Assembly: GCA_963740635.1 (NCBI GenBank)
Contig: CAVUEQ010000003.1
Span: 97,350-161,349, forward strand
Source of the DNA: an uncultured bacterium
Lineage (GTDB): Bacteria; Patescibacteriota; Saccharimonadia; UBA4664
Length of the DNA stretch: 64,000 nt
Direction of reading: 5' to 3'
Below, one piece after another: positions 2,154-57,783 of the stretch (within the stretch, counting starts at the first letter, position 1; the number at the start of each line of letters is the position of its first letter). The position numbers were made by a program, and so were the translations under genes. The notes beneath the pieces are model-generated. The model made no database searches, was not told the DNA's origin, and was given only the letters and a program-made list of their open reading frames with translations.

Positions 2154-3656
2154 GTGTTCTGGGCAACTTTACTGCATTATTACCAGCCATATAAGCAAAA
2201 ACGCGAGATAATCGATGCGATTGTGGCGCAGTGCTACCGGCCGGTGGCTGAGGGGATTTTGGCTGAGCCGGGCGCAGCGGTAACGATAAATTTTACGGGG
2301 GTGCTGCTCGACCAGCTGGCGGAATACGGGTACGGCGAGGTGATCGACATGTACGCGGAGGCGGCACGGCTGGGCCGGGTGGAATTTGTGGGCTCGAGCA
2401 AGTACCACACTACATTGGCGCTGATGGAGCCGGCGGAGGCGCTGCGGCAGTTGGAGCTCGATGACGAGGCGGGGCGGCGGCATTTTGGGAACGCGTACGA
2501 GCGGCAGGGGATTTTTTTGCCGGAGATGGCCTGGCACCCGAAGCTGGCGCCGGTGCTGGAGGCGGCCGGGTTTGAGTGGGTGATGCTGGATGAACTGGCC
2601 TGCAATGGCAAAATCGGCGCGGTGGATTATGCGTTGCGGTACAAGGTGGAGGGTACGTCGCTGGGGGTGCTGTTTCGGGAGCACCGGCTGAGCGCGACCA
2701 TTATGAGCGCCGGGCCGCGCGACACGGGTGAGCTGAAGAAGGCGGCGGGGACCGCATTGCACGAGCGGCGGATGATCGTGACGGCCATGGACGGCGAGAC
2801 GTTCGGGCACCACCGGGTGGGCCACGAGCAGCTGCTGTTTGGGATGTTCCGCGACCCGGAGATTAATCTGGTGCGGGCGAGCGATCTGCTAACGGAATTT
2901 GCCGATGCGCCGGTGGTGACCGTGCCGACGGTGGCGTGCACCTGGGCTTCTAGCGAGTATGACATTGAGCGCGGCACGCAATTTATTTCGTGGGACGACC
3001 CCGACAATGAAATCCACCGGCTGCAATGGGAGCTGATGAATTTGGTGACGAATGCGGTGCATGAGGCCGACCACAAGGCGCCCGGCTATGAGGTGGCCCG
3101 AGCTAAGCTCGATCCGGCGCTGGCCAGCGACCAATTTTTTTGGGCGACGGCCAAGCCGTGGTGGATGGTCGAGCAGATTGAATTTGGGGCCTACATGCTG
3201 CTCGACACGCTGGAGCATATGCCGGGAGTGGGCCCCGACGTAGTGCAACGGGGGCTCGACCTGTACCGGCAGATAATGTGGCTCGCCTACGAGTGGCAGC
3301 GCGGCGGCAAGGTGGACGAAATTGTGAGCTCGGGCCGGGATGACGTGGTGCGTATTCCGCTGCGTGAATGGACGCTGGAGAGCGGCGGGCGGGAGAACGT
3401 GGTTTGGCATGCGTATATGGACCTGATGCGCGGCGAGGAGAAGGCCGCCGTGAAGCGCGGGGATTATGAGGCGGCAATTTTATGGCGCGACGCGGTGTAC
3501 AAGCTCGAGCACAAGCTAGATATTTACGACGCCTGGTACGCCACTGACATGCTGAAGGCCAAGCTGCCGAACCGGCGGGTGCAGGAAACTATCGATGAAT
3601 ATAAGGCGCAATACGACCACATCCGCGGCGGGCAGGTGGAGCAGCGGTCGAATTAG
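2154..3656 (+). CDS. glycoside hydrolase family 57 protein (alpha-glucan-active enzyme)
   Basis: 500 aa. The N-terminal ..LLHYYQPY.. and ..MDGETFGHH.. motifs are typical of GH57. It lies between glgA and glgP. Confidence 0.8.
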   Translation: MFWATLLHYYQPYKQKREIIDAIVAQCYRPVAEGILAEPGAAVTINFTGVLLDQLAEYGYGEVIDMYAEAARLGRVEFVGSSKYHTTLALMEPAEALRQLELDDEAGRRHFGNAYERQGIFLPEMAWHPKLAPVLEAAGFEWVMLDELACNGKIGAVDYALRYKVEGTSLGVLFREHRLSATIMSAGPRDTGELKKAAGTALHERRMIVTAMDGETFGHHRVGHEQLLFGMFRDPEINLVRASDLLTEFADAPVVTVPTVACTWASSEYDIERGTQFISWDDPDNEIHRLQWELMNLVTNAVHEADHKAPGYEVARAKLDPALASDQFFWATAKPWWMVEQIEFGAYMLLDTLEHMPGVGPDVVQRGLDLYRQIMWLAYEWQRGGKVDEIVSSGRDDVVRIPLREWTLESGGRENVVWHAYMDLMRGEEKAAVKRGDYEAAILWRDAVYKLEHKLDIYDAWYATDMLKAKLPNRRVQETIDEYKAQYDHIRGGQVEQRSN

Positions 3657-3911
3657 TTTTTACTTGTAAAGAGTGGTCTACGGGTTTGGAAATATTCGGT
3701 TGCCCATCGCGCAGGGGTGTTCTACTATATGGAATTTGCTACCATTTTTGAGCGTAAAATTTCGCGATAATTCCTTATACTGGAACACCTCTATAGAGGG
3801 GATGTTTCGAAATATCAGCGGCGGACATGGGTAATTTGAAGTTATAAGTATGTCTCAAGGACACGTTCTACGGAATAGCATATAGTTAAGTTAGACAAGC
3901 AAAGGACCCTC

Positions 3912-5555
3912 ATGACCGACCCGACCGTCGCCTACTTTTCGGCTGAGTATGCCATAGCCGACGACATGCCGATCTACGCCGGGGGCTTAGGGGTACTGGC
4001 GGCGGATACGGTACTGGAGGCCGGCGCGCAAAACCGGGAGTTTTATGCACTGGGGCTGGTGTACCACCTGGCGTTTACGGGGTCGGATCCGGACCAGCGC
4101 ACCATGAACGAGCGGCTGGTGGGCAATGGGTTCGAGGTGGCGAAGGATGCTTCAGGAAAGCCAATCAACGCCACTGTGCACGTGGCGGACCGCACGGTTA
4201 TTTTGCAATGCTGGGTGAAAAAGTGGGGCCGCACGCGGCTGCTGCTGCTAGACACCAACTTGGACCAGAACGACCCGCGCGACCGGGCGATTTGCGACCG
4301 GCTGTACGCCAGCGACCCCAACCTGCAGCTGGCCCAGGAGATTTGCCTCGGGTTCGGCGGGGTAGCAATGATGGAGGAGTTGGGGCTGGAGCCCGACGTC
4401 TACCACCTCAACGAGGGCCACACGGCCATGGCCGGCCTGGCGGTGGCACTGCGGGCGCTGGAGACCAGCCCCGGCATCCTGAACCTGGATATGGCGGTGG
4501 CGAAAGTCAGGCGCCGGCTGGTGGGCACCAAGCACACGATACTGGCCGGCGCCGGCATTTTGCTCGACTGGGGCAGCATGACACGCCAGCTCGGGCCGAT
4601 GCTGACGGCGCACGGAGCATCGGTCGACGAGCTGCGCGGAATGGCCGGGCTGCCCAACGGGGATTATTCCGATACCCGGCTGATGATCGAGCTGACCCAC
4701 CTGGCCAGCGGCGTGTCGAAAATCCATGTGGCCGAAGAACTGGAGGCGCACTCCAACAGCCGGCTGATCCCGATTACCAACGGCGTGTACCGGGGGCGGT
4801 GGGTGGCCGAAAACTGGGGCGACCAGCCGCTGGAATTGGGTGATGCCGAGATTTGGGCGAAGCACAGCCAAAATCGCCGTAACCTGTTCGGCATGATCAA
4901 AACCCAAACCGGTGACCAGCTCGACCCGGACCGGCTGACGGTGGTGTGGTCGCGGCGGATGGCGGCCTACAAGCGGCCGGAACTTTTGGCGAGCGACCTG
5001 GGGCGGCTCGAGGCCCTGGTGCGCCACCAGACGCACCCCGTGCAGTTCGTGGTGGCGGGGCGGGCCAACCCGTCCGACGCGGTGGGCACCGAGCTGATGA
5101 ACCGGGTGATTGCGGCGTCGAAGCGGCCGGCGCTGGCCAAGCATTTTGCCTACCTGCCGCGCTACAACCCGGCGACGGCCAAGCTGCTGGTGCGCGGTGC
5201 CGACCTGTGGCTCAACACGCCGATTCGCGGCTACGAGGCGTGCGGAACCAGTGGCATGAAGGCCAGCCTCAACGGCGCGCTGCAGTTTTCGACCTCGGAC
5301 GGCTGGCTCGACGAGGTGAAGCTGGCCGAGATCGGGTGGCGGCTGCCCGTGGAACGCGCGGCGGCGGAACTATACGAGCGGCTGGAAGACGACATTGCGC
5401 CCATGTTTTACGAGCGCGGCGCCGACGGACTGCCACGGGAGTGGATCAAGCTGATGCGGGCAAACATGAAGCTGGTGGCGGACCAATTTACCGCGACCCG
5501 GATGCTTTCGGAATATTACTCTAAATTGTACGCGCCTCAAGCTTCGTTTGATTAG
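3912..5555 (+). CDS. glgP: alpha-glucan (glycogen) phosphorylase family protein, GT35
   Basis: 547 aa. YFSAEYAI..PIYAGGLGVLAAD..HLNEGHTA.. and the C-terminal ..TSGMKASLNG.. match alpha-glucan family phosphorylases. Confidence 0.9.
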   Translation: MTDPTVAYFSAEYAIADDMPIYAGGLGVLAADTVLEAGAQNREFYALGLVYHLAFTGSDPDQRTMNERLVGNGFEVAKDASGKPINATVHVADRTVILQCWVKKWGRTRLLLLDTNLDQNDPRDRAICDRLYASDPNLQLAQEICLGFGGVAMMEELGLEPDVYHLNEGHTAMAGLAVALRALETSPGILNLDMAVAKVRRRLVGTKHTILAGAGILLDWGSMTRQLGPMLTAHGASVDELRGMAGLPNGDYSDTRLMIELTHLASGVSKIHVAEELEAHSNSRLIPITNGVYRGRWVAENWGDQPLELGDAEIWAKHSQNRRNLFGMIKTQTGDQLDPDRLTVVWSRRMAAYKRPELLASDLGRLEALVRHQTHPVQFVVAGRANPSDAVGTELMNRVIAASKRPALAKHFAYLPRYNPATAKLLVRGADLWLNTPIRGYEACGTSGMKASLNGALQFSTSDGWLDEVKLAEIGWRLPVERAAAELYERLEDDIAPMFYERGADGLPREWIKLMRANMKLVADQFTATRMLSEYYSKLYAPQASFD

Positions 5556-9896: not shown

Positions 9897-11318
9897 TTAG
9901 CCTCGGACCGGTTCGAGGAGGTGGGAGCTGGCTTTTTCGGTGCGGCCGCGGCGGGAGTTGGCGGTTTTGACGGAAATGGTGCCGGCCAGGACAATGGCGT
10001 ACATGGCGAGCATTACGGGCATGGTGATGTGGTCGGTGCGGCCGGCCCAAGGGAGGGCGGCGAATTGGTCGATGACGGCGGTGATGAAGCCAAGGACCAG
10101 CATGGCCGGCCAGGCGATCCAGCCCGCAAAGGCCGGGATGAGCATGCCGGCCATGCCCGCGGCGAAACTGACGGCCATGGCCAGCGGCACCATTGGCAGC
10201 ACGACCAGGTTAGACAGCGGCGACACGATGGAGAGCTGGCCGAAGATGTAGAGAATGAGCGGCAGGGTAAGAACTTGGGCGGTGGTGGATTCGATGAACA
10301 GCCGGATAATGACGGATTTGGGATGGTGCAGGCGGGCTTCGATGGCGGGCGCGAGCACCAGGATGCCGAAGAAGGCCAAGAATGACAGCAGCCACCCGAG
10401 ATCGGTGAGGTAGGCCGGGCCGAAGGCGGCGGTGGCACCGGCGGCGATGAGGATGAGGGTGAGCGGGTTGAAGCGCAGGCCGTAGAAACTAGCGAGCAGG
10501 CTGAGGACGCTCACAAGGCTGGCGCGGACGATGGAGGCGGAGGCGCCGGTGACAATCAGGAACCCGGCGATGAGCCACAGGCTGGTAACCAGCGCCACCC
10601 CGCGGCCGGCGCGCTTAAGGGCGCGATCGACGGCGGCGATGATGATGGTGAGGTTGTAGCCGGATACCGCCACGAGATGGCTGAGGCCCACGAGGGCGAG
10701 CTCGGTCTGCATGGGTTTGGGGATGAGCGCGCGGATGCCTACGAGCAGGCCGAGGCCGAAGCTGGCCAGGGGCTCGGGCAGGGCGGTGCGCACGCCGGTG
10801 AAGAAGCGCTGGCGGAATTGTTCGAGGGGGTCCTGGGCGGTGGAGAGAGTTTCGATTTTGGGGAAGCTGAGCTCGGCAACGGCATTGCCGAAGCCGGGTT
10901 TGACTTTGCCGGTGGCCCGCACGCGGTAGCCGCGCTGGAGGTGGACCGGGTAGCTATGGACGCTGAGGGTGCCGGGGATGCGGCCGCCGGCATTGAGGCC
11001 GCCGAGTTTGAAGTCGACCTGGCCCGTTGTTGGATTTACAGCGGGGTCGTCGGCGACCGTGCCGGTGACAGTGACCGCTTGGCCGATGAGGGCCGTGAGC
11101 TGGGCGCGGTCACCGGCCCAGGCCGTAGCGCGCCACAGGCCGAGCGACAGCGCCGCGAGCATGAGGCAGCCCAGCAGCAGGCGGCTGCGGCGCGCGAACA
11201 GGCCGGCGGCCAGAGCGACGGCCAGCGCTTCGGGCCCGGCCTGTATCCCCGCGCGCCCGAGCGCCACCCCGGCGATCAGGGCGCCAAAAACCAAACTGAT
11301 CTGGGTGGTGCGTTTCAC
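9897..11318 (-). CDS. comEC: ComEC/Rec2 family competence membrane protein
   Basis: 473-aa polytopic protein with the ..GLSHLVAVSGYNLTII.. competence-domain motif. Confidence 0.85.
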   Translation of the reverse strand: MKRTTQISLVFGALIAGVALGRAGIQAGPEALAVALAAGLFARRSRLLLGCLMLAALSLGLWRATAWAGDRAQLTALIGQAVTVTGTVADDPAVNPTTGQVDFKLGGLNAGGRIPGTLSVHSYPVHLQRGYRVRATGKVKPGFGNAVAELSFPKIETLSTAQDPLEQFRQRFFTGVRTALPEPLASFGLGLLVGIRALIPKPMQTELALVGLSHLVAVSGYNLTIIIAAVDRALKRAGRGVALVTSLWLIAGFLIVTGASASIVRASLVSVLSLLASFYGLRFNPLTLILIAAGATAAFGPAYLTDLGWLLSFLAFFGILVLAPAIEARLHHPKSVIIRLFIESTTAQVLTLPLILYIFGQLSIVSPLSNLVVLPMVPLAMAVSFAAGMAGMLIPAFAGWIAWPAMLVLGFITAVIDQFAALPWAGRTDHITMPVMLAMYAIVLAGTISVKTANSRRGRTEKASSHLLEPVRG

Positions 11319-11387
11319 TCGGCGATTATGGCCTTACTAAGGGCCAATCGCAAGCACAAGCGGCGAGGCGCGAACATTAGAATAAGT

Positions 11388-12186
11388 TTATCTGAGTAGC
11401 GGGAATATGGCGTCCGCGCCGCCCGTAAGCTCGCCGTGAACAACAGAGTTAGTAATTAAGTAGTCGTGGTTTCGGTAATCGTAAGTATTTTGGCCAATGT
11501 TGGTGGCTACCCCGCCGGCTTCGCTGACCAACAGTGAGCCAGGAGCAAAATCCCAATCCGCGCCATAGGGTTCAAGCCCGATGCGGCCCTCGAGCTTCCC
11601 GGAAGCAATCATGGCAAATTCAAAGCCGCAGTTAAGAGTAGCGATGATGTTGGCTTGCCCTCTGACCTGGAGGTATTTCGCGTTGTTCTGCGGCTTATCG
11701 AGCTTGGTCTCAAAAGAAATCATACCGTGTTTCAGCCCGCGTTCGCTAACGGAAATTCTTTTTCCGTTACAGAATGCGCCGCCGCCCCGGGTAGCCCAAT
11801 ACGTGTCATCGCGGACAAAGTCGTGAATAACTGACAGCACTACCTGGCCATTTTCAATGAGCGCGACCATCGTTGTGCAGAAGGGCAGGCCCCGGGTGAA
11901 ATGTGAGGTCCCGTCGATTGGGTCAACCAACCAGGTGGTTTCGGCCTGAGCCTGAACGCCAAACTCTTCGCCCCTGAAGCCAATGTCTGCGGAAAACTTG
12001 CCGAGCTCCACTGACTAGAAATCGCTCGGTCCGGTGATCAAGCTCCGTAACAACGCCACCGACACCGAATCCGTCGCCCTTACTTTTTGACTCTACTTTG
12101 CCAAAATGCAGCTTTAATTCTTGCCCCGCTGTGACGACTGCGGCCCGGGTGATTTTGAGGGCTTGATCTAGATCTTTGTCAGTCAT
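11388..12186 (-). pseudogene. inositol monophosphatase (SuhB/IMPase) family gene interrupted by a +1 frameshift near 12008-12012
   Basis: ORF 11923-12186 gives the N-terminus ..VVTELDHRTERFLVS. ORF 11388-12011 continues ELGKF..GEEFG..WLVDPIDGT... Removing one G from AGTGGAG restores a single IMPase reading frame. Confidence 0.8.
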
Positions 12187-42164: not shown

Positions 42165-43121
42165 CTAAAGAGGGGCGTTTGTGGTGATGTGCAGAGTGCC
42201 CTTTTTTAGCATAAGCAAGATGTTTAGGCGCAACGGGCGGTGCGTGCCGGTGCGGCCGGTGCGGGCGAACGCCGCGGCTTGAGTGACGAGACGCCGGTCG
42301 AGCTGAATGCCGGGATGGAGGGCGCGGGCGGCGGCGAGGATGAGCTCCTGGAGCTGCGGGGCAGAGAGGCTATTGACGAAATCCCGGTCAAATTGGAGAG
42401 TGTCCGGACTCATGCGCGCGGGAGCAATGATGTCACCCAGGGTTTGGTCAATTTTGGTATTCAAGGCGGCTAGTTCTGCGACCAATGCCAGATAACGGCG
42501 GCGCCAGGAGGGGCCGGCGGCCGCCAGGAGACGGTGACGCAGCAGGTTTCGGGGGTTGGCGAGGCCGGCGTTGGTGGGGTCCTCGCGCCAGGCGACATGG
42601 TGGACCGCGGCGTAGGCCCGAAGCTGTGCGCGGGTGGCGGCTAGCAGGGGCCGGGCAATGGCGCCGGCGGTGAGCCCTCCCAGGCGGGTCTTCGACATGG
42701 GCGCCAGGCCGAGGCGGCCGGAGCCGCGCGCCAGGTTGAGCAGGCTGGTCTCGAGCAGGTCGTCCTGGTGGTGGGCGGTGAGGATGGCGGTGGCGCCGGC
42801 GGCGGTACGGACCTGCTCGAGCCAGGCGTGGCGGGCGGCGCGGGCGCGGGCTTCACTGGCGCGGCCGAGCCCGGCCGCCGCGTGCTCAAACGGCAGGCCG
42901 AGGCGGCGGGCGGCGGCGGCCACAAACCCGGCGTCGGCCGCGGAGTCCGCGCGCAACCCGTGGTCGAAATGCGCCACCACCAGCTCGTACCCGCGCGCCG
43001 GGGCGGCGGCCGCAAACAAATCCAGCAGCACCATGGAGTCGGCGCCGCCGCTCACAGCCAACGCGTAGCGGCCGGCCGGCGGCCAGTCCACGCGCGGATT
43101 CACAGCCTTAGCCGCCGCCAT
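42165..43121 (-). CDS. tilS: tRNA(Ile)-lysidine synthetase TilS (short form)
   Basis: PP-loop ..ALAVSGGADSMVLLDL.. and ..ILTAHHQDD..ET.L.NL.RG. Confidence 0.85.
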   Translation of the reverse strand: MAAAKAVNPRVDWPPAGRYALAVSGGADSMVLLDLFAAAAPARGYELVVAHFDHGLRADSAADAGFVAAAARRLGLPFEHAAAGLGRASEARARAARHAWLEQVRTAAGATAILTAHHQDDLLETSLLNLARGSGRLGLAPMSKTRLGGLTAGAIARPLLAATRAQLRAYAAVHHVAWREDPTNAGLANPRNLLRHRLLAAAGPSWRRRYLALVAELAALNTKIDQTLGDIIAPARMSPDTLQFDRDFVNSLSAPQLQELILAAARALHPGIQLDRRLVTQAAAFARTGRTGTHRPLRLNILLMLKKGTLHITTNAPL

Positions 43122-46384: not shown

Positions 46385-46459
46385 TGGTGGCTACGGCTAG
46401 ATTCGAACTAGCGACCAAGGGCTTATGAGTCCCCTGCTCTACCACTGAGCTACGCAGCC
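46385..46459 (-). tRNA. tRNA with anticodon CAU (elongator Met-like; Ile2 not excluded), CCA encoded
   Basis: Reverse complement GGCTGCG..CTCATAA..GTTCGAATC..CGTAGCCACCA. G1-C72 are paired, so it is not an initiator. The acceptor stem resembles E. coli tRNA-Met(m). Confidence 0.85.
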
Positions 46460-48544: not shown

Positions 48545-48621
48545 TGGTAGCGGGGGCAGGATTTGAACCTGCGACCTCTGGGTTATGAGCCCAGCGAGCT
48601 ACCGAACTGCTCCACCCCGCG
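48545..48621 (-). tRNA. initiator tRNA-fMet (anticodon CAU), CCA encoded
   Basis: Reverse complement CGCGGGG..CTGGG-CTCATAA-CCCAG..CCCCGCTACCA. It has three G-C pairs closing the anticodon stem and an unpaired 1:72 position (C:U). Confidence 0.88.
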
Positions 48622-50246: not shown

Positions 50247-50322
50247 GGGTCCGTAGCTCAGTGGTTAGAGCAGGCGGCTCATAACCGCTTGGTCGCAGGT
50301 TCAAATCCTGCCGGACCCACCA
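50247..50322 (+). tRNA. tRNA with anticodon CAU (Met elongator or lysidine-modified Ile2), CCA encoded; integration target
   Basis: GGGTCCG..GGCGG-CTCATAA-CCGCT..GGTTCAAATCC..CGGACCCACCA. 1:72 are paired. The last 44 nt are overlapped antisense by the recombinase ORF. Confidence 0.88.
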
Positions 50323-51811
50323 ATGTTGATTTATCGTCAGCGATTTGCTGAATTACCTCAAAACAAAGCCCTAATTTAGCGGTTCCAAAACCTATCCCGA
50401 AGTCATACCTAATTCCACCCGGGAAGATCATCTTTTGGAACCGGCGTTTGTATTCCGGTTCCGCATCCTCCCACATCTTCGCCAGGTTACCAATAAAGTT
50501 AGCCGCATAACCTACTATCGCATCGCGGTCCAACTCCTCCTCCCACGCCTGCCCCCGCTGCATTTGCATCGTTACTAGCTCACTATCAATCTGATCTATC
50601 ACGCGCTTATTCTTCGCTAACTGCCCGGTTTTTGCCAGGTTGCGCACGACGGTGTCCTTTTCCTCTTCAAGAACCTGCATGGACTTATCGATCTTGCGCC
50701 TAGCGTTGCGGGCATCCGCATATTCAGACTCCCATCGCTTGAGGACTGTGGCACGAAACAGTAAGAGGTCATCGTCGGTAAACTTGACGGCTTTTAGACG
50801 TTCCAGAAACTGCCGGTGAAGTGCTTCTTTATCTTCCGAGACTTGCTTGCCGGTGACGGAGCGTCGGCACTTTGGGCAGCTGTACTTGAGATACACGCCG
50901 CCGTTGCCGCGAGGTGTGCTGCCGGTGATGGGCGTAGAGCAGAGGTGGCAAACCACGAATCCACCGCGCAGAGGCCACTCACCGCCCATTTTGGTCTTGA
51001 GCAGTCCCTTGCGCGGTTTGCCGGTAAGTATGTCTTGGTTGGCCTCAAACTCGCTCATAGTTATCAGGCCAGCATGTAGGCCTTTGCGATCACCCTCAAC
51101 CAACTTGCTTCTCACGATACCGGCGTAAACACCATTTCGGAGCATGTTGCAGGTGTACTGGTACACCAGCCTTTTGCCAGACTTGTTGGTGATGCCCATC
51201 TGCCAAGCCAGCTTGTGCATCTCACGCTGCGTATAGACGCCCTTAGAGAACTCCCGGAGCCACTTTGCTACAAGTGGTCCTTTTTCGTCTGCCTCGAGCG
51301 TAGGCCGGTTCATTGCGTCTTTGACGTTGCGGTAACCAATTGGTGCCATGAAGGGCCAACTTCCCTCTTCCACCCGCTTTGCCATTCCGCCAATGGAGCG
51401 TTCGGCGCGTACCTCGTTGTCAAACTGCGCAAATCCCGACAACATTGTCTCCATCAATCTGCCAAGGGTAGTGTCTTCTATCGGCTCGGTAACCGATGCG
51501 AGGCTCACTCCTACCTTCTTGAGCACCGCTTTGATAGCATGGTGGTCTTTGGTGCGGCGAGAGAACCGATCCAGCTTCCAAACGAGCAGGGTGCTAACTT
51601 GGCCCTTGTGCTCTTGGCAATACCTGATCAGGGCGAGGAGCTGTGGCCGGTTGGCAGTTTTGGCGCTTTCGCCCTCTTCGACAAATACCTTTAGCACCTC
51701 GAGCCCGTTGGCCTCGGCATACTTCTCGCAGGCTTCGAGTTGATTCCCCAAGCTCATATTCTCGACTTGCTCGTCGGTACTGACCCTGGTGTAGATAATG
51801 GCTGTCTTCAT
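50279..51811 (-). CDS. large serine recombinase (resolvase N-domain + recombinase domain + zinc ribbon)
   Basis: 510 aa. ..AIIYTRVSTDEQ.. catalytic Ser region, ..WKLDRFSRR.., then ..C..C......G.........YY.C..C Zn-ribbon and a coiled coil. Confidence 0.9.
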   Translation of the reverse strand: MKTAIIYTRVSTDEQVENMSLGNQLEACEKYAEANGLEVLKVFVEEGESAKTANRPQLLALIRYCQEHKGQVSTLLVWKLDRFSRRTKDHHAIKAVLKKVGVSLASVTEPIEDTTLGRLMETMLSGFAQFDNEVRAERSIGGMAKRVEEGSWPFMAPIGYRNVKDAMNRPTLEADEKGPLVAKWLREFSKGVYTQREMHKLAWQMGITNKSGKRLVYQYTCNMLRNGVYAGIVRSKLVEGDRKGLHAGLITMSEFEANQDILTGKPRKGLLKTKMGGEWPLRGGFVVCHLCSTPITGSTPRGNGGVYLKYSCPKCRRSVTGKQVSEDKEALHRQFLERLKAVKFTDDDLLLFRATVLKRWESEYADARNARRKIDKSMQVLEEEKDTVVRNLAKTGQLAKNKRVIDQIDSELVTMQMQRGQAWEEELDRDAIVGYAANFIGNLAKMWEDAEPEYKRRFQKMIFPGGIRYDFGIGFGTAKLGLCFEVIQQIADDKSTLVGPAGFEPATKRL

Positions 51812-51857
51812 ATTTTGAACCTTTGAAGCCTTGATTATATGCTAACTTGTTAACATT

Positions 51858-52028
51858 TCAAGACTTCCGCCTGGACTTTTGAACCTTGAACATATCCACC
51901 ACTAGTTTGGCCAGCTGGTCTACGGCCTCGACCCGCGCACGAATCTCATCGTCGGTCATAGTCTCAGATTTGGCCCCGAGCAACTTGCGTGCCTCTGCCA
52001 CCCCGAAGTTTTGCTCGGAGTTTGCCAC
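51858..52028 (-). CDS. possible small ORF (56 aa, GTG start), unknown function
   Basis: Not in the ORF track (under 60 aa). The GTG lies 2 nt after the RHH stop. Translation MANSEQNFGVAEARKLLGAKSETMTDDEIRARVEAVDQLAKLVVDMFKVQKSRRKS. Confidence 0.3.
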   Translation of the reverse strand: MANSEQNFGVAEARKLLGAKSETMTDDEIRARVEAVDQLAKLVVDMFKVQKSRRKS

Positions 52029-52030
52029 GA

Positions 52031-52219
52031 TTACCCCTTGCGCCGGTTGCCGCGCTTACCAGTCGCGAGCTTGGCCTGCTCTGCATCTAGGTCATCAATT
52101 AGATCATTCAGTAGCTGGATCATCGACCGCCCGTCCATGGCCGCAATAATTTTCAACCGCTGGTGCTGGTTGGTGCCAATGCGCGTTAGTCTCGTTGATT
52201 CTTCGATAGTCGAGTTCAT
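52031..52219 (-). CDS. ribbon-helix-helix (CopG/Arc-like) DNA-binding protein
   Basis: 62 aa from the ATG at 52219 (GAGGGGGA upstream). ..TRLTRIGTNQHQRLKIIAAMDGRSMIQLLNDLIDDL.. fits the beta-strand/helix/helix pattern. Confidence 0.6.
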   Translation of the reverse strand: MNSTIEESTRLTRIGTNQHQRLKIIAAMDGRSMIQLLNDLIDDLDAEQAKLATGKRGNRRKG

Positions 52220-52293
52220 GGGTCCCCCTCGGGTTGGAAACAAAAGTAGCCTTCTACACAAAGGCTACACGTGCGGGAGTTCGCTAGAGTTAG

Positions 52294-52947
52294 CTAACTT
52301 TTTGTAGTGAGTGCCGGGTTCAAGCGCACCGTGTACTTGGTGACTAGCAGTAGATCCGGGGTGCCTGACAATGCTGCAACGCGGGTATTCACACTGGTGG
52401 CGGCGGTATATACCTTCCGCCAGTCCAACGCGTGTTGATCATCTTCACGTATTCCAAACTCAGCCAACATTTCGTCTGCGTTCCACGCCTCGCCCGGAGC
52501 CTTACTCGCGCCGAATAGAGCCGCCAGCAGAGCGGCCTGATTGGTATTGGGCCGAATCCTCACTTGGCCACCGTTTAAGCGCAGCACTGCACGGTCGGGT
52601 TCGTAGCTCACGCCGCCTTGAGGTAACAATAGCTGAATTGGCCGGATGTTGAGTAACTTTATCGAGTATTCTTGCCTAAACGAGAATACGGAGCCTACCG
52701 GGTTGACTCGCGTCATGAAGCCGTCTTGCTTCTCATGGTTCACTCTCACGGCCCCTTGCTGCTCTAGGTACCGCCAAAACTCCCCAATCCCTGTCTCGCT
52801 CTCCTGGTCCGGCTCGTCGGTATCCGCGTACGCCTGCACTACCACGTCCAAACCGAGCGAAGCAGCCTGGTAATTCTCTTCGTGACTGACCAAAGCGGTA
52901 GCGATGCGCGTAGTATGCTCGCTAAGGTTGGGCGTCGTAGTCTCCAT
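52294..52947 (-). CDS. hypothetical protein (217 aa); C-terminal part possibly winged-helix
   Basis: First gene of the co-directional 217 aa-RHH-56 aa-recombinase array. No family recognised. Confidence 0.45.
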   Translation of the reverse strand: METTTPNLSEHTTRIATALVSHEENYQAASLGLDVVVQAYADTDEPDQESETGIGEFWRYLEQQGAVRVNHEKQDGFMTRVNPVGSVFSFRQEYSIKLLNIRPIQLLLPQGGVSYEPDRAVLRLNGGQVRIRPNTNQAALLAALFGASKAPGEAWNADEMLAEFGIREDDQHALDWRKVYTAATSVNTRVAALSGTPDLLLVTKYTVRLNPALTTKS

Positions 52948-53268
52948 GGTGTAAACAAGTATACGCCGGGTGTGAATGGGGACACGGATCGAGACTAATG
53001 ATTGCGGGTATATGGGGCTTTTTTGTGTTACTGAATGTCATGAAATGGTTGTACAACTAACAACACGAATACGCTCAAAAAAATTATGTGTGCCCGCAGC
53101 GAGATTTGCCAACGCATATGCTCGTGACCCGGTAGTTGTGCGACGGGGGTGCACGGGGTGCAATATGACCCGGGTGTTGGCTTGGTAGTGTACACGGAAT
53201 GGATTGGGTGCCACATGTCTTCGGTGGCGGATCGGGGAGGCTCTGAGAGCGTAGGTCCGACGCGGAAG

Positions 53269-53496
53269 TTACATGCCCTTGAACAGATCCGAGATGCGCA
53301 CACCAAGCCCCTGCGCTAGTCGATCGAGTGTAGCAATTCGCGGCCAGCGTCTGCCGTTCTCTACAAATGCTATGGTCATACGGTCCAAGCCCGTCTTTTC
53401 GGCCAACTGTTCCTGGGTAATAGACCTTTCGGCCCGGAGTTGAGCAACATGCCCTCCAAATCTAGCCAAAATCTGCTTTTCGTCGTGCTGCTTCAT
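53269..53496 (-). CDS. XRE-family helix-turn-helix transcriptional regulator
   Basis: ..ITQEQLAEKTGLDRMTIAFVENGRRWPRIATLDRLAQGLGV.ISDLF. ATG at 53496 (track ORF starts at the GTG 53505). Confidence 0.85.
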   Translation of the reverse strand: MKQHDEKQILARFGGHVAQLRAERSITQEQLAEKTGLDRMTIAFVENGRRWPRIATLDRLAQGLGVRISDLFKGM

Positions 53497-53514
53497 TGCA
53501 TACACGATATTGAG

Positions 53515-53549
53515 TGTTTACAATCTGTAACATTTACAATTTGTAAACA
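53515..53549. promoter_or_regulatory. operator-like inverted repeats in the XRE divergent promoter region
   Basis: TGTTTACAA (53515-53523) and TTGTAAACA (53541-53549) are reverse complements. TTTACAA-T-TTGTAAA (53533-53547) is a 7-1-7 palindrome. Confidence 0.6.
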
Positions 53550-53569
53550 ATGTGTTATTATTCGGCCTT

Positions 53570-54082
53570 ATGAAGTCAAAAAAGAGATTCAATAAACTCT
53601 ACTGGATTGTGCCAACCGCAGTGGCTGCCTGCCTGCTCAGCGGTGTAGCCGTCTTTGCCCTGAATAGCGGTGCGGAGCTACCAACCAACACGGACTACGC
53701 GACTAGTGCATCGCTAACTGCAACGCCAACCTCGCCGAAGCCTGGAAGCACTACGACAATAGTGGTTGTTACCCCGGCTCCGGTCGCGCCAAGCACCACT
53801 GTAGTCGAAACCCAGATTTGCAGGAGCATTATCAGCAACGCGCAAACTCAAGCAAAGAACCTGGATTCACAATACTCGAGCAACTGGACCTCGTGGAACA
53901 GCGTGTACCTGGGTGAGTACGACAGCCAAGCCGCCCTGGATGGCAAAGAGTGGTATAAGAACTACACAAAGCAGCAGTTTGCCAACTGGGTTAGCTCCAA
54001 TGACCCGACCATGCAGAAGTTCTGCCACTCCTCGACCTCACTGGCCGACATCATGGTCCAGCCCGACTACAGCACCTGGTAA
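53570..54082 (+). CDS. hypothetical secreted/membrane-anchored protein (170 aa)
   Basis: MKSKKRFNKLYWIVPTAVAACLLSGVAVFAL signal anchor, then a Thr/Pro linker. Transcribed divergently from the XRE gene. Confidence 0.5.
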   Translation: MKSKKRFNKLYWIVPTAVAACLLSGVAVFALNSGAELPTNTDYATSASLTATPTSPKPGSTTTIVVVTPAPVAPSTTVVETQICRSIISNAQTQAKNLDSQYSSNWTSWNSVYLGEYDSQAALDGKEWYKNYTKQQFANWVSSNDPTMQKFCHSSTSLADIMVQPDYSTW

Positions 54083-54094
54083 TAGCGCGGGGCT

Positions 54095-54634
54095 TTAGTC
54101 GAGAAGTGACTTCTGGCCACCGGTAAACCAGGAGCTGTCAAAGCCGTCCGCAACTACGATGGGCTGCACCTCGGTCAGACCGGCAGCGTGAAGGGTGCGG
54201 AGTTGTTTAGCGAGAGTGGATGCGTCCTCAGTGATGATGTAGTCAATTTTATTTTTCTCGGCCTGGGCAATAAGTTTCAGATCATCCTTGAACTCAGCGC
54301 GCGCACTTCGGGGTGTTGTGCCGTCATTCGCGGAATCGTTTCGTGCGTCAATCCGGGCGGTACTGCCGAGATTGTGGGCGACGTTGGAAAGGTGGGTTGC
54401 CTCGTAGATATTAAAAGGCATGGGAATAAAGTTGCCGCTCGACAGCCACTCCGCAGCCGATACCAGCTGGTGATACTCGGCAATCACTATGGCCGACAGA
54501 TGCATCTTGATGTCGTTCCCCAGCATGTATTTGTAGTAGCGATTAGCTACATCGTAATTCGGATATTTGGGATTCGCGAGGGTGATGAGGAATGTAGTGT
54601 CCACCATGACGGTCTTTTTTGCATCAGCCATCAT
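54095..54634 (-). CDS. PIN-like domain nuclease (179 aa)
   Basis: ..VMVDTTFLI.. N-terminal Asp strand, ..IVIAEYHQL.., and C-terminal ..DDLKLIAQAEKNKIDYIITEDAS.. acidic residues, all in PIN order. Confidence 0.6.
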   Translation of the reverse strand: MMADAKKTVMVDTTFLITLANPKYPNYDVANRYYKYMLGNDIKMHLSAIVIAEYHQLVSAAEWLSSGNFIPMPFNIYEATHLSNVAHNLGSTARIDARNDSANDGTTPRSARAEFKDDLKLIAQAEKNKIDYIITEDASTLAKQLRTLHAAGLTEVQPIVVADGFDSSWFTGGQKSLLD

Positions 54635-55421
54635 TTCCTCGCATCGCTTCTACCCATGAGGTCGGCGATGCACCCTCCCAGACTGCCGCACCCTTTTCTT
54701 GGATAGCGACAAGCTGGGCTTCGTCGTAGTGGGGGTAATAGTGTTCGTAGCCAAGTAGCTCCTCGTCTTTGAGCAGTTCGGTCTTCACATTGTAGAGCGC
54801 CTTGATCCGGAGTAGTTGCTTCTGGTAGAGGCGGTTTTCTTTGTCGCTGGCCAAGAGTTTGGTATCCGACGATACAGTCAGAGACCGGCCGTTCTCAAGC
54901 TGCACATGCACGTTGGCCTTGGATTTACCGCCCATATCGTATATCTCGCCATAAACATACTTTTCGACCTCCACCCAGACGTTGTTGGACGCGTGGTATT
55001 CCGAATCGGCGTTAATGACGATTCTCTTCACATCTTTGCCGCCCAGGGTGAGCGTATATACCCGCCCCTCGTTGAGACGTGCTAGGTTCTGCCACTGATT
55101 GATGATCTTGCGGCGGCCTGGGTCTAGATCGCTGATGTCGTCCGAGCTGGCCGCTTTCTCATAATCTACTTTAACCTCGGCCATAAACGCGGGCTGGCCG
55201 CTTGTAGCAAGCACCAGGGAGCCTTCCTCGACGGCGGTGCTGATCTTGGCATCAAGACGTCGTGAACCTTTCACAAAATCGGCCACTTGGGATACAAAGT
55301 CCTTGAGCATGGACAGGCTGACATGGTCAGGAGTGACCGGTACGCCATCAACGTTATCCTGAAGCGAAAACTTCAGTGTTATAGGATCTTCAACTGATTC
55401 GGCTGAGGTGTTTTTTACCAT
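54624..55421 (-). CDS. hypothetical protein (265 aa), partner of the PIN gene
   Basis: Overlaps the PIN gene start by 11 nt. No recognisable family. Alternative TTG start at 55466. Confidence 0.5.
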   Translation of the reverse strand: MVKNTSAESVEDPITLKFSLQDNVDGVPVTPDHVSLSMLKDFVSQVADFVKGSRRLDAKISTAVEEGSLVLATSGQPAFMAEVKVDYEKAASSDDISDLDPGRRKIINQWQNLARLNEGRVYTLTLGGKDVKRIVINADSEYHASNNVWVEVEKYVYGEIYDMGGKSKANVHVQLENGRSLTVSSDTKLLASDKENRLYQKQLLRIKALYNVKTELLKDEELLGYEHYYPHYDEAQLVAIQEKGAAVWEGASPTSWVEAMRGNDG

Positions 55422-55639
55422 AACCTTTATGCTTATGCTATCACGGATTGTAGTACCGAACACCAACCGAAACTATTGGTATTTCTTACAGGATTCTTAC
55501 AAAGAGTCCGACGTGATTTGGTAGGAGCTGATCATATACGCGAGGCCAGCGACCTGCAAGCACATGGGGAATCCGCCCGCCTTAGCGTAATCGCAAGAAT
55601 CATGACCCGGCTCGCCTACCAGCAACAACGGCAAAGAGC

Positions 55640-56629
55640 TTACTTCTCCCGGCCGGTGTCGCTCTTGTCCACCCGAGCGAGTCTCCTCTGATACAGGTGT
55701 CGGAAAAGCTTGATCTCTATGATCCTAAACTTATCCAGCACTAGGAGCAGGATAATTACGCCGAGAACGGTTGCTAGGCCTGTCCCGGCGGGAGTTGAGA
55801 CGCCTTTAACGAGCGTCTTGATTGGAGCCGCAGCCGCTGCAGCAGCCGAAGCCGCCTTGCTTGGAGAACCGCTGGGCGAGGGAGATGCGGTCGAAGATGG
55901 CTGGGTACTGTTATTTGAGACAGCATTTTGGGACTTGCCACTACCTGTGGACGAATTGGAGCTACCGGAGGCGCTCTTTTGATCCTCATAGCGGAATACA
56001 GTCACCTGGGCGCTCGTTGTCTGATGGCCAGCGTTGTCGGTGGCAACGGCGGTTACGGCATTTAGCCCGATCGTGAGAGGTAGTGTGACCGAATATGCCC
56101 CGCCCTGCACGGACGCTGCGTGGCCATTTACCGTGACTGATTGGATTCCGGAACCGCTATCACTCACCGATCCCGTTACGCTCACGTTTGCGGCGGCGGT
56201 ATTCGTGTTGTTCTGGGGCAAGGAAATCGAGACCGTTGGTGCCTGCGTGTCGTATTTTAGATCGCCTTCCCACGCGACGATATTAAACTGGCCGCTGGGC
56301 AAGGACTGATTGCAGTAGAGAGCCCCCATTCCAAGTACTCCGTCAGTCTCGACATGTACGACCGTCTCGTTGGCATCTGTTAGAAAGCGATAGTGATGGA
56401 GGCCTTGAGCAAACCAGTCGTACCCGGAATCCGAGCTGGAACCGCATTGATTCCATACTGGCTGCCCCGTAAACCACTCGTTTGCCAGGCTGCAACCGTG
56501 AATGGCTTTGCAGTAGGGGCCGTACATTGGAGTCGCAGCGAGGCCTACACCTGGCAACCAAGCCATTGCCAAAATGACTGCCGGTAGAAGCAGCCTAATT
56601 GACCTCAATATTTTCCTTGCGTGAAGCAC
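55640..56629 (-). CDS. secreted Ig-like domain protein with Ser-rich linker and C-terminal membrane anchor
   Basis: Signal peptide, a Cys-containing N-domain and an Ig-like segment (..VSVTGSVSDSGSGIQSVTVNG..), then a Ser-rich linker, TM and basic tail. Confidence 0.55.
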   Translation of the reverse strand: MLHARKILRSIRLLLPAVILAMAWLPGVGLAATPMYGPYCKAIHGCSLANEWFTGQPVWNQCGSSSDSGYDWFAQGLHHYRFLTDANETVVHVETDGVLGMGALYCNQSLPSGQFNIVAWEGDLKYDTQAPTVSISLPQNNTNTAAANVSVTGSVSDSGSGIQSVTVNGHAASVQGGAYSVTLPLTIGLNAVTAVATDNAGHQTTSAQVTVFRYEDQKSASGSSNSSTGSGKSQNAVSNNSTQPSSTASPSPSGSPSKAASAAAAAAAPIKTLVKGVSTPAGTGLATVLGVIILLLVLDKFRIIEIKLFRHLYQRRLARVDKSDTGREK

Positions 56630-56949
56630 AATTTGGTCCCGTGACTTGCAGTTATTCTACAATCTACCGTGGAATTAGGCTAGAGGCTTGAGCTTAGAGA
56701 TGCTTGGGTTCACATACATCTAAGTAGTGCTTGCGACCGGCATGTCCCGTAGCACCCGGTACCAATCCACCAGCTCCTTCTTGATAAGGTTCCACCGAGT
56801 TAAACTCAAGTCCACCAATAATTGACTCCAACTAGGTAAGGCCAGGTCTATGAACACGGAAATTCCGTCGCCAGACGACAAACGCCTACGGTATCGGGGA
56901 GCGGACAGCTCAAGAAATTACCGTCGAAGTCCCTGGGCATGACGGCCCG

Positions 56950-57750
56950 GTGGCACTGCAGGTTCAGACTGAGGGCGCCCTCATCGAGGATCTGCGGGTT
57001 GGTGATACGCAGGTTCTGACTAGCGTTGACGTCAAGGACCCCGAGACGGGAGACGATTTTTTGCGACCGTTGAAACGCGACGGCACGATCACAGTGTTGC
57101 CTTATGGTCCCAGCCCGGCCGGTCCTCAGCATGGCCCGTCGCGCTATAACCAGTACAATATCGCATCATCGGCAGCTAATAGGCTTGAGCTGACGGCCCG
57201 GGATCCGCAAGGCTACGGACACCTCAAGACGCTAGTGGCTGAGGCCGACGGAGCGACGATTACTGACGAAGTCGTAAACTTGAGCGGTAACGAGGCACGA
57301 ATGAGCGTCGGCGAGCATTTCTATTTTCCCGTGCAAGAAGCCGAGTTGGCCCAGGTGAAATTCCTGAACGAATCCGGTGAAGAAACTTCCTTTGCGACCG
57401 GAGTCGAGGATAAGGGCAATGCCCACGGAAAACTTTCTGACTTCCTAGATGAACTTATGGACGGGAAAACGCTGCATATCGAAGGGTTTACCGGTAGCCA
57501 ATCGATTAGCATCCCCGGCCTGGGAGTGATCGAATTGGGCGCCGACGCCCAGGTGGAAGGACAGAAACAGGCTGTGAGCCTGTTGATATGGCATCGTCCA
57601 GGGACAAACACCATTTGCTTTGAGCCCGTTGCAGGGGTAGCGATGGACAGTGAGGGCCGCGAGCAAAGCGACGGGGTGGCACTCGGTGCGGGCGAGACCG
57701 TGACCCTGACGTCTCGGGTCCGTCTGACGCGCTCGTTAGCCGGGCAATAG
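56950..57750 (+). CDS. aldose 1-epimerase-fold (hexose-phosphate mutarotase-like) protein; N-terminus probably displaced by a frameshift (ATG at 56850)
   Basis: ..PQHGPSRYNQYN.., ..GEHFYFPV.. and ..TICFEPVAG.. align with aldose-epimerase family motifs. The same frame stays open and protein-like back to 56854 with no start codon. Confidence 0.6.
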   Translation: MALQVQTEGALIEDLRVGDTQVLTSVDVKDPETGDDFLRPLKRDGTITVLPYGPSPAGPQHGPSRYNQYNIASSAANRLELTARDPQGYGHLKTLVAEADGATITDEVVNLSGNEARMSVGEHFYFPVQEAELAQVKFLNESGEETSFATGVEDKGNAHGKLSDFLDELMDGKTLHIEGFTGSQSISIPGLGVIELGADAQVEGQKQAVSLLIWHRPGTNTICFEPVAGVAMDSEGREQSDGVALGAGETVTLTSRVRLTRSLAGQ

Positions 57751-57783
57751 CGGGCCGCACTTTTTTGGTGGTACGATGTTCAC

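Follow-up and report, generated by a model that had tools for sequence, protein, structure and literature searches.

We analysed a 64,000-nt stretch of a soil Saccharimonadia genome (contig CAVUEQ010000003.1 of assembly GCA_963740635.1; hereafter the window) that carries a small integrative element of 6,495 bp, at positions 50325-56819, next to a transfer RNA (tRNA) gene with anticodon CAU. The island itself is ordinary-looking; its integration module is widespread and appears to be a novel variant. In our reading, to which we assign a probability of roughly 85%, the element was inserted by its own large serine recombinase (integrase) at the 3' end of a tRNA-Ile2(CAU) gene, using an element attachment site (attP) located inside the 3' coding end of the integrase gene, which is split on integration. 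An initial annotation of the window, made from sequence alone, had proposed a lower-GC island of about 6.5 kb at this tRNA; the fact that the integrase's open reading frame (ORF) crosses into the tRNA gene, the position of attP within the integrase gene, and the sharing of this arrangement by several phyla go beyond that description.

The integrated form of the integrase gene (50279-51811, minus strand, 510 amino acids) runs 44 nt into the tRNA gene in antisense. Its end, ...STLVGPAGFEPATKRL*, is what the antisense strand of the tRNA reads between the CCA end and the anticodon loop: tRNA antisense makes up the final 13 sense codons and the stop (50279-50320), and the TGA is the complement of U33-C34-A35. 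The 13 residues dictated by the tRNA, GPAGFEPATKRL, follow a shared LV. At the far end of the element, 56720-56819 on the minus strand contains the shared L-V codons, 30 tail codons (DLSLTRWNLIKKELVDWYRVLRDMPVASTT), and a stop codon, constituting a detached integrase 3' end that is the P arm of attP. Joining the two copies of the octamer CCACCAAT found at the element's ends yields a continuous ORF of 528 amino acids with the new end LVDLSLTRWNLIKKELVDWYRVLRDMPVASTT*. Integration exchanges the last 30 integrase codons for 13 dictated by the tRNA.

Homology of the detached tail carries this reconstruction. The reconstructed end is 59% identical over 80 residues to the end of a 528-residue homologue (P0008), with the invariant Trp in register, and its tail can be aligned to those of 13 homologues without the tRNA-type ending. 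A tail profile hidden Markov model (HMM) built without the window matched 56917-56723 on the minus strand with an E-value (E) of 5.6e-8, the sole significant match among 1,907 six-frame segments of the 64 kb (the next best in the window had E 0.047). Because the tail homology starts at the octamer, with nothing continuing outside it, and because the joined frame is open, we set the element at 50325-56819 and attP within the integrase gene.

The left copy of CCACCAAT, at 50317-50324, consists of the last 6 nt of the tRNA plus AT and forms the attL core; the identical copy at 56812-56819 forms the attR core, with which the element ends on the right. The crossover dinucleotide falls at some point within this octamer. 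The initial annotation had offered the second octamer as a tentative right boundary and called for the two junctions to be aligned. The alignment found both copies at these positions, together serving as the crossover core, and the second is the true attR core, with integrase tail coding beginning just inside it; the end coordinate of 56850 given earlier has to be moved to 56819. A longer remnant of the tRNA 3' end, sought across the window with up to 3 mismatches, was not found, and a general repeat search for att sites in the window returned chance-level families only. We reconstructed attP by joining 56772-56819 to 50325-50364, giving the predicted junction ...GAGTTAAACTCAAGTCCACCAATGTTGATTTATCGTCAGCG..., and predicted ...CCTGCCGGACCCACCAATAATTGACTCCAACTAGG... 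as the junction of the empty chromosomal site, attB.

Two relatives, L002 and L003 (DivIC 72% identical), have the gene order DUF8173, DivIC, tRNA(CAU), a 215-aa gene, and DsbA. Their tRNA is separated by 34 nt from the 215-aa gene, which is the orthologue of a 214-aa gene in the window, and the sequence following the tRNA is ...CCCACCAATGCAC.... Since these relatives lack the block and have CCACCAAT only once, the window carries inserted DNA after the tRNA. Different short ORFs occupy the spot downstream of the tRNA in L004 and L006, and a scan of genome contigs using the DUF8173 neighbour recovered no relatives. The comparison with relatives proposed in the initial annotation thus shows an empty tRNA site in L002 and L003; for this very element no empty site was found in JGI metagenomes.

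The same arrangement recurs widely. Among 120 homologous proteins (37-71% identical), 99 end in a tRNA-antisense peptide of the form [LVM]V..G[FIL]EP and 5 more read the T-arm in another frame, while 13 have an alternative, alignable tail, S-x-[LV]-V-x6-W-N-x-[LI]-x3-L. A genome scan produced 34 full-length loci (26-37% identity), and at 24 of them the integrase ORF overlaps a tRNA gene, the tRNAs involved being Glu, Met, Ile, Ala, Arg, Leu, Phe, and Asn. Among the hosts are Saccharibacteria, other Patescibacteria, Verrucomicrobiota, Acidobacteria, Bacteroidota, Alphaproteobacteria, and a Methanobacterium metagenome-assembled genome (MAG). Four further integrated elements have a detached tail at the far end of the element on the integrase strand, together with a 6-8 nt identity block at the tRNA 3' end: L007 (11.4 kb, tail E 3e-6), L030 (9.9 kb, E 3e-3), L094 (6.8 kb, E 1.4e-5), and L096 (7.2 kb, E 2e-3). 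Presumptive free forms were also recovered: L087 is a unit of 4,495 bp whose ends overlap exactly over 1,520 nt and L088 is 6,274 bp with a 30-nt end overlap, each with an intact integrase gene and no tRNA, and circular or concatemeric molecules typically give such end overlaps. In L089 an Sf6-type small terminase lies beside the integrase gene, and L097, a 41.8-kb IMG/VR contig and the only clade member among the matches listed in the integrase-alignment scan, ends within the integrase/tRNA overlap; the terminase and the size of L097 indicate that the clade serves phage-sized elements too.

Some members of this set call for separate comment. The archaeal case (L041, Methanobacterium sp. MAG, 10001-11590), in which a homologous recombinase ORF enters a tRNA-Leu, represents either cross-domain spread or a binning error. 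A protein named as Streptomyces caniscabiei (P0088), on a 958-kb contig, has the same tRNA-antisense ending as the Patescibacteria proteins and may reflect horizontal transfer or contamination. L007 contains a 13-nt match, at 87-99 and 11637-11649, to the D-arm region of its target tRNA-Glu just outside the far-end tail, which may be a fragment of a second tRNA copy. Genes for a Y-family DNA polymerase and SRAP (an abasic-site sensor) are cargo in related elements (L096 6326-8532, L088 1062-1757), which suggests a link to DNA-damage tolerance in some members.

The integrase has the domain composition of a serine integrase, with a catalytic domain followed by recombinase and zinc-ribbon domains with a coiled coil. 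PF00239 (Resolvase) matches residues 4-152 with E 4e-37, and the domain matches the catalytic domains of TP901-1 and gamma-delta. Across 36 sequences (alignment A3), the catalytic positions are invariant (the Y-x-R-V-S motif, D81/R82/R85, and others), as are the zinc-ribbon cysteines C291, C312, and C315, with C288 nearly so. PF07508 and PF13408 gave no match to the window integrase at E 0.01; both are annotated in most homologues. For P0008, which is 51% identical to the window integrase, the AlphaFold model has a predicted local distance difference test score (pLDDT) of 88.7, and a Foldseek search against the PDB matched it to full-length SPbeta-type, PhiC31, Bxb1, and LI integrases with E between 3e-18 and 1e-10. 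Long paired helices at about 346-424 in AlphaFold2 (AF2) models fit an inserted coiled coil. The Pfam match, invariant residues, and fold match of the homologue together bear out the initial identification of the 510-aa protein as a large serine recombinase. Its attachment sites are likewise short with a small shared core, 8 bp here and 6-8 bp in four relatives. The two forms of the protein differ in the models at their C-termini: the free-form tail of P0008 is a helix at 499-527 (pLDDT 72-81) following a low-confidence linker, whereas in the integrated-form window protein (AF2) residues 492-510 score below 50 in pLDDT and form no secondary structure.

The main tools for inserting large DNA are serine integrases, and their natural targets are usually protein-coding genes; control of their direction is known to act through coiled-coil motifs and directionality factors. 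The enzyme class and domain order here are those of the A118/LI, SPbeta SprA, PhiC31, Bxb1, and TP901-1 integrases, but the relationship is distant, with 13-20% identity in fold alignments and a sequence search finding the catalytic domain only. Unlike the phage enzymes, this one targets a tRNA 3' end and has attP in its own 3' coding end, a C-terminus that depends on integration state, and an extra helix at that terminus; its conserved 56-aa upstream partner belongs to no known family. A related case among phages is the integration-dependent immunity reportedly described by Broussard et al. in 2013 for mycobacteriophages BPs and Brujita, in which attP lies in a coding gene and integration at a tRNA gene changes the C-terminus and behaviour of the product. 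The affected gene there is said to be the repressor and the recombinase a tyrosine integrase; here it is the integrase's own gene that is altered.

Placement of attP within an integrase ORF is established for the archaeal tyrosine integrase of pTN3, which integrates into a tRNA gene and whose excision restores the gene (PMC5495485). SSV1 and pTN3 use tyrosine recombinases, share a long identity segment with their target (41 bp in pTN3), and disrupt the integrase gene; the present element uses a serine recombinase and 6-8 bp of identity, and only the last 30 codons are exchanged, leaving the ORF otherwise complete. The window element is an analogue of the SSV/pTN3 type rather than a member, sharing the division of the gene but not the tyrosine chemistry. 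It also differs from classical tRNA islands, which have a tyrosine integrase and a repeat of tens of bases: the repeat is only 8 bp, and Pfam finds no Phage_integrase (tyrosine integrase) domain in the block. Serine recombinases at tRNA genes have been noted as rare, in a Mycobacterium group of actinomycete integrative and conjugative elements (AICE; tRNA-Leu) and in phiRSM (tRNA-Ser) (PMC3218068). Use of tRNA genes by large serine integrases has been described as not previously reported, with 14 of 297 serine-integrase (S-Int) islands in TIGER (PMC7192596). These reports describe no integrase ORF running into a tRNA, split tail, or T-loop-like attP motif, and the phiRSM enzyme is small and resolvase-like, unlike the large serine integrase here. 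A literature search, outside which most subscription-journal papers lay, gave no account of a tRNA-targeting serine integrase whose own 3' end contains attP.

This large clade sits at the last bases of many tRNA genes, a use that for serine integrases has been described as rare or not yet reported. With the detached-tail signature, both ends of an element can be mapped from sequence alone, which is normally hard for serine integrases, and the signature reveals elements of 4.5-11 kb in Saccharibacteria and other poorly studied phyla.

The attachment sites share a motif at a fixed offset. The T-loop sequence GGTTCAA of the tRNA (50298-50304), in the B arm, lies 25 nt from the CCA end, and the P arm has GGTTCCA, spanning the W-N codons, at 56788-56794, 30 nt from the CCA-like end. 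Read in the tRNA sense, the P arms run (T)GGTTCCA(A), some 17 nt, and ..CACCA. Counting from the tRNA end, GGTTC starts at 25 (24) nt in the B arm and at 30 (29) nt in the P arm of each of the five integrated elements, and the free-form contigs L087-L089 have the 30-nt spacing too, L089 with GGCTC. Relative to its place in attP, the zinc-ribbon motif of serine integrases lies 5 bp nearer the centre in attB (Rutherford et al. 2013, PMC3783163). The phage enzymes have short att sites with few shared bases and a motif displaced by 5 bp between attP and attB (PMC3783163), as here, and the 5-bp offset of GGTTC would reflect recognition by the zinc ribbon. If so, the offset provides a readable rule for how the enzyme finds its site, and the shared motif at the zinc-ribbon offset would explain how relatives have moved among many tRNA genes.

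A conserved small protein precedes the integrase in many of these elements. In the window it is a 56-aa protein (orf56) at 51858-52028 on the minus strand, directly upstream of the integrase, with homologues at the same position in L087, L088, L089, L094, L096, L007, L010, L019, L025, and L028. An ORF of 53-88 aa with the motif ..EARK[IL]LG......[TS]D[DE]E[IV]... finishes immediately ahead of the integrase start in eleven elements. At E<=1e-3, a set of 1.84 billion proteins yielded ten representatives, 55-68 aa long, and neither Pfam nor PHROGs has a matching family. By position, orf56 is a candidate that may act as a recombination directionality or accessory factor.

Taken together, the arrangement suggests the following cycle. 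In the free circle the gene encodes a 528-aa enzyme whose C-terminus is a conserved amphipathic helix (W-N-x-L...). Recombination within the 8-bp CCACCAAT keeps the tRNA intact and cuts the integrase 30 codons before its stop; in the chromosomal state the integrase body reads into the tRNA in antisense, its tail codons stranded at attR 6.5 kb off, and the gene would be made whole again by excision. Acceptor and T-arm DNA of the tRNA would form the B arm of attB, with GGTTC placed 5 bp farther out from the crossover in the P arm. As a result of the tail swap, the integrated- and free-state enzymes may differ in activity, with orf56 as a putative accessory or directionality factor. An extension of this scheme, which we advance tentatively and with the odds against it, is that throughout the multi-phylum clade the zinc ribbon reads the T-loop motif and its attP copy 5 bp further out, and that the C-terminal swap serves as a sensor of integration state, the 56-aa partner setting direction. 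Should the state-dependent C-terminus indeed alter activity, it would add to the known directionality controls of serine integrases.

Several observations weigh against parts of this account. The hydrophobic periodicity of the tail continues past the likely limit of attP, which suggests that the tail helix also matters as protein, and the W-N conservation could be at the protein level only. By inspection, the P' and B' arms contain no GGTTC-like motif, and the dyad symmetry of the reconstructed attP and attB is weak. The relatives with an empty site, L002 and L003, are of other species (about 70% nucleotide identity), and the neighbouring mutarotase-like gene is missing from them too; the exact ancestral attB is hence a reconstruction and not an observed sequence. 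Exact-match searching of JGI metagenomes for the attP and the empty attB of this element, and of IMG/VR for attP, found none and gave no sign of present activity. Finally, homologues with intact tails occur in long chromosomal contigs with no tRNA nearby (L012, L013, L022, and L028), which the model does not explain. On the 1.36-Mb contig L028, a tyrosine integrase lies 4 kb downstream of the intact-tail serine integrase.

The first of these points feeds the strongest alternative, a possible though doubtful one, in which the P-arm GGTTCCA is a by-product of a protein requirement for Trp-Asn, resembling the T-loop and showing the 5-bp offset only by chance. In its favour, Trp can be encoded by one codon only, conservation of the hydrophobic pattern after W-N reaches past the likely attP limits, Asn is encoded by AAT in L012, L022, and L094, and the P' and B' arms have no matching motif. 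Against it, all tails but one have L, H, Q, or R following W-N, and wherever DNA is available the codon of this residue begins with C, completing GGTTCCA. L011 retains GTTCG even though its residues there are A-N. The distance to the crossover does not vary, and in five independent att pairs it is exactly 5 bp greater than in the tRNA. On the fit to the 5-bp rule, the C-starting codon after W-N, and the L011 case, we favour a DNA-level constraint on the P-arm motif.

The failed searches bear on a second alternative, that the element has the architecture described but is a fixed, immobile remnant that has lost excision. The circular-junction (attP) sequence that the initial annotation proposed to look for had no exact match in JGI metagenomes or IMG/VR, nor had an empty attB in the JGI metagenomes. 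Both known copies are integrated, the sole other one (L001) coming from a different sample, and there are no replication or transfer genes. We nevertheless regard a remnant as rather unlikely: the integrase ORF, detached tail, both octamers, orf56, and the XRE/operator module described below are all intact, the composition is still strongly foreign, and the collections searched probably do not contain this population.

It is far less probable that the tail-like stretch at attR is what remains of another, degraded integrase gene inserted in tandem at an earlier time. Second, weaker tail relics do exist in L096 near 3560 (~3552-3680, E 9e-3) and in L022 near 4950 (~4922-5095, E 1.4e-2), and earlier or tandem insertions at the same tRNA may have left them. 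In the window, however, the homology starts at the shared octamer, no integrase-like sequence continues on its other side, where a host gene begins 32 nt away, and the frame is continuous over the join; L007, L030, and L094 have one tail per element.

Least credible of all is an element of 7.4 kb reaching about 57755 and taking in a 266-aa gene, which is favoured by blastn synteny (50325 to ~57755/57822 has no counterpart in L002/L003) and by the intermediate GC of 56820-57750 (0.574), but is contradicted by the att logic, which sets the end at 56819, and by the 266-aa ORF being a mutarotase-like host gene starting 32 nt past attR. A right end at ~57755, beside the 214-aa gene, had been considered from synteny and was dropped after the tail reconstruction and the demonstration that the 266-aa ORF is a mutarotase-like host gene. 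The stretch 56820-57755 lies outside the element, and homologues of its ORF are found amid housekeeping genes and never adjoining an integrase. The true start of the gene (56851-57750, plus strand) is the ATG at 56851, 32 nt beyond attR, which reads MNTEIPSPDDKR and matches the N-termini of P0214 and P0216. Near its 5' end the gene is frameshifted, homology resuming in another frame from ~56890, and it is either a pseudogene or affected by an assembly error.

The integrated element is compositionally distinct from its surroundings. GC content is 0.532 across 50325-56819 and 0.610 across the rest of the window, stepping right past the tRNA from ~0.65-0.70 to 0.50-0.56. Among 176 equal-sized windows outside the block, the minimum GC was 0.581 (mean 0.615, standard deviation 0.013), and the tetranucleotide distance of the block was 0.318, about twice the maximum elsewhere (0.164). 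The windowed profiles recommended in the initial annotation thus place the block outside the range of all 176 comparison windows and, with the att junctions, substantiate its lower-GC island of about 6.5 kb at a tRNA-CAU. The DivIC-like neighbour protein has homologues named Candidatus Saccharimonadia.

The target tRNA (50247-50322, plus strand) was called with anticodon CAU by ARAGORN and scores 75.7 bits with the Rfam tRNA model. The anticodon agrees with the earlier call, which we refine: since the nearest E. coli counterparts (87-89% identity) are genes annotated as tRNA-Ile, we take it to be of the Ile2 (lysidine) type and not Met. It is one of three CAU tRNAs inside 4 kb, the other two lying 2-4 kb upstream (46385-46459 and 48545-48621, both minus strand), and the trio is kept in L002, L004, and L006. 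By sequence the three resemble elongator Met, initiator Met, and Ile2, of which the putative Ile2 call was checked against E. coli genes.

The block's genes were compared with Pfam, PHROGs, and PADLOC. Upstream of orf56 on the minus strand are a ribbon-helix-helix (RHH) DNA-binding protein (52031-52261; PF23807 RHH_10 E 4.7e-6, phrog_1016 E 1e-4) and a 217-aa orphan (52294-52947), the first gene of an orf217-RHH-orf56-int strand block; the orphan has no significant match in these databases and no homologue in the other elements compared. Next is a 321-bp non-coding region (52948-53268) with a promoter-like site at 53112-53083 on the minus strand and an operator half-copy, TGTAAACAA, at 52950-52958. 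The XRE-family repressor (53269-53505, minus strand) matches HTH_3 with E 2.8e-15 and PHROG transcriptional repressors, and has a homologue in the circular element L087 (E 2e-15). Two 14-nt palindromic operator-like sites, TTTACAAT(C/T)TGTAA, occupy 53515-53549 in the 46-nt divergent region between the XRE gene and the secreted-protein gene, confirming the divergent operator region noted at the outset, and overlap a promoter-like TTTACA-17-TATTAT at 53533-53561. The repressor, acting at these palindromes, would control the orf217-RHH-orf56-int block. Promoter and terminator scans of the element did not rise above shuffles, and Rfam over the element found the tRNA only.

The remaining genes are cargo. 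A 176-aa protein with an N-terminal hydrophobic signal or anchor (53552-54082, plus strand; 170 aa as called in L001) has no family match. On the minus strand follow a putative PIN-like protein of 179 aa (54095-54634; PIN_3 E 0.013, covering profile positions 2-114 of 115, below the curated cutoff) and, with an 11-nt overlap, a 280-aa (280/265) orphan with no family match (54624-55466). The last gene (55640-56629, minus strand) encodes a surface protein of 329 aa that combines a signal peptide, an Ig-like domain, a linker rich in Ser, and a membrane anchor at the C-terminus (Glucodextran_B E 8.1e-16, phrog_11157 E 3.7e-8). Of the contents originally listed, the recombinase, 56-aa ORF, RHH protein, orphan, 321-bp gap, XRE repressor, and Ig-like protein stand as described; the secreted ORF is 176 aa at its longest, rather than 170, and the PIN assignment is weak. 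None of the nine block genes matched a capsid, terminase, portal, tail, replication, or packaging-redirection family, nor a defence family. Relaxase, coupling protein, and type IV secretion families were likewise not matched, with four ORFs lacking annotation, among which a novel mobilisation protein is possible. The element would therefore seem to have no virion, replication, or transfer genes of its own, in agreement with the original view that such functions are missing and that this is a minimal island driven by a large serine recombinase and carrying mostly novel cargo. Elsewhere in the window, GC peaks at 0.77 at 42500-43000, within a 318-aa minus-strand ORF, well over the window mean.

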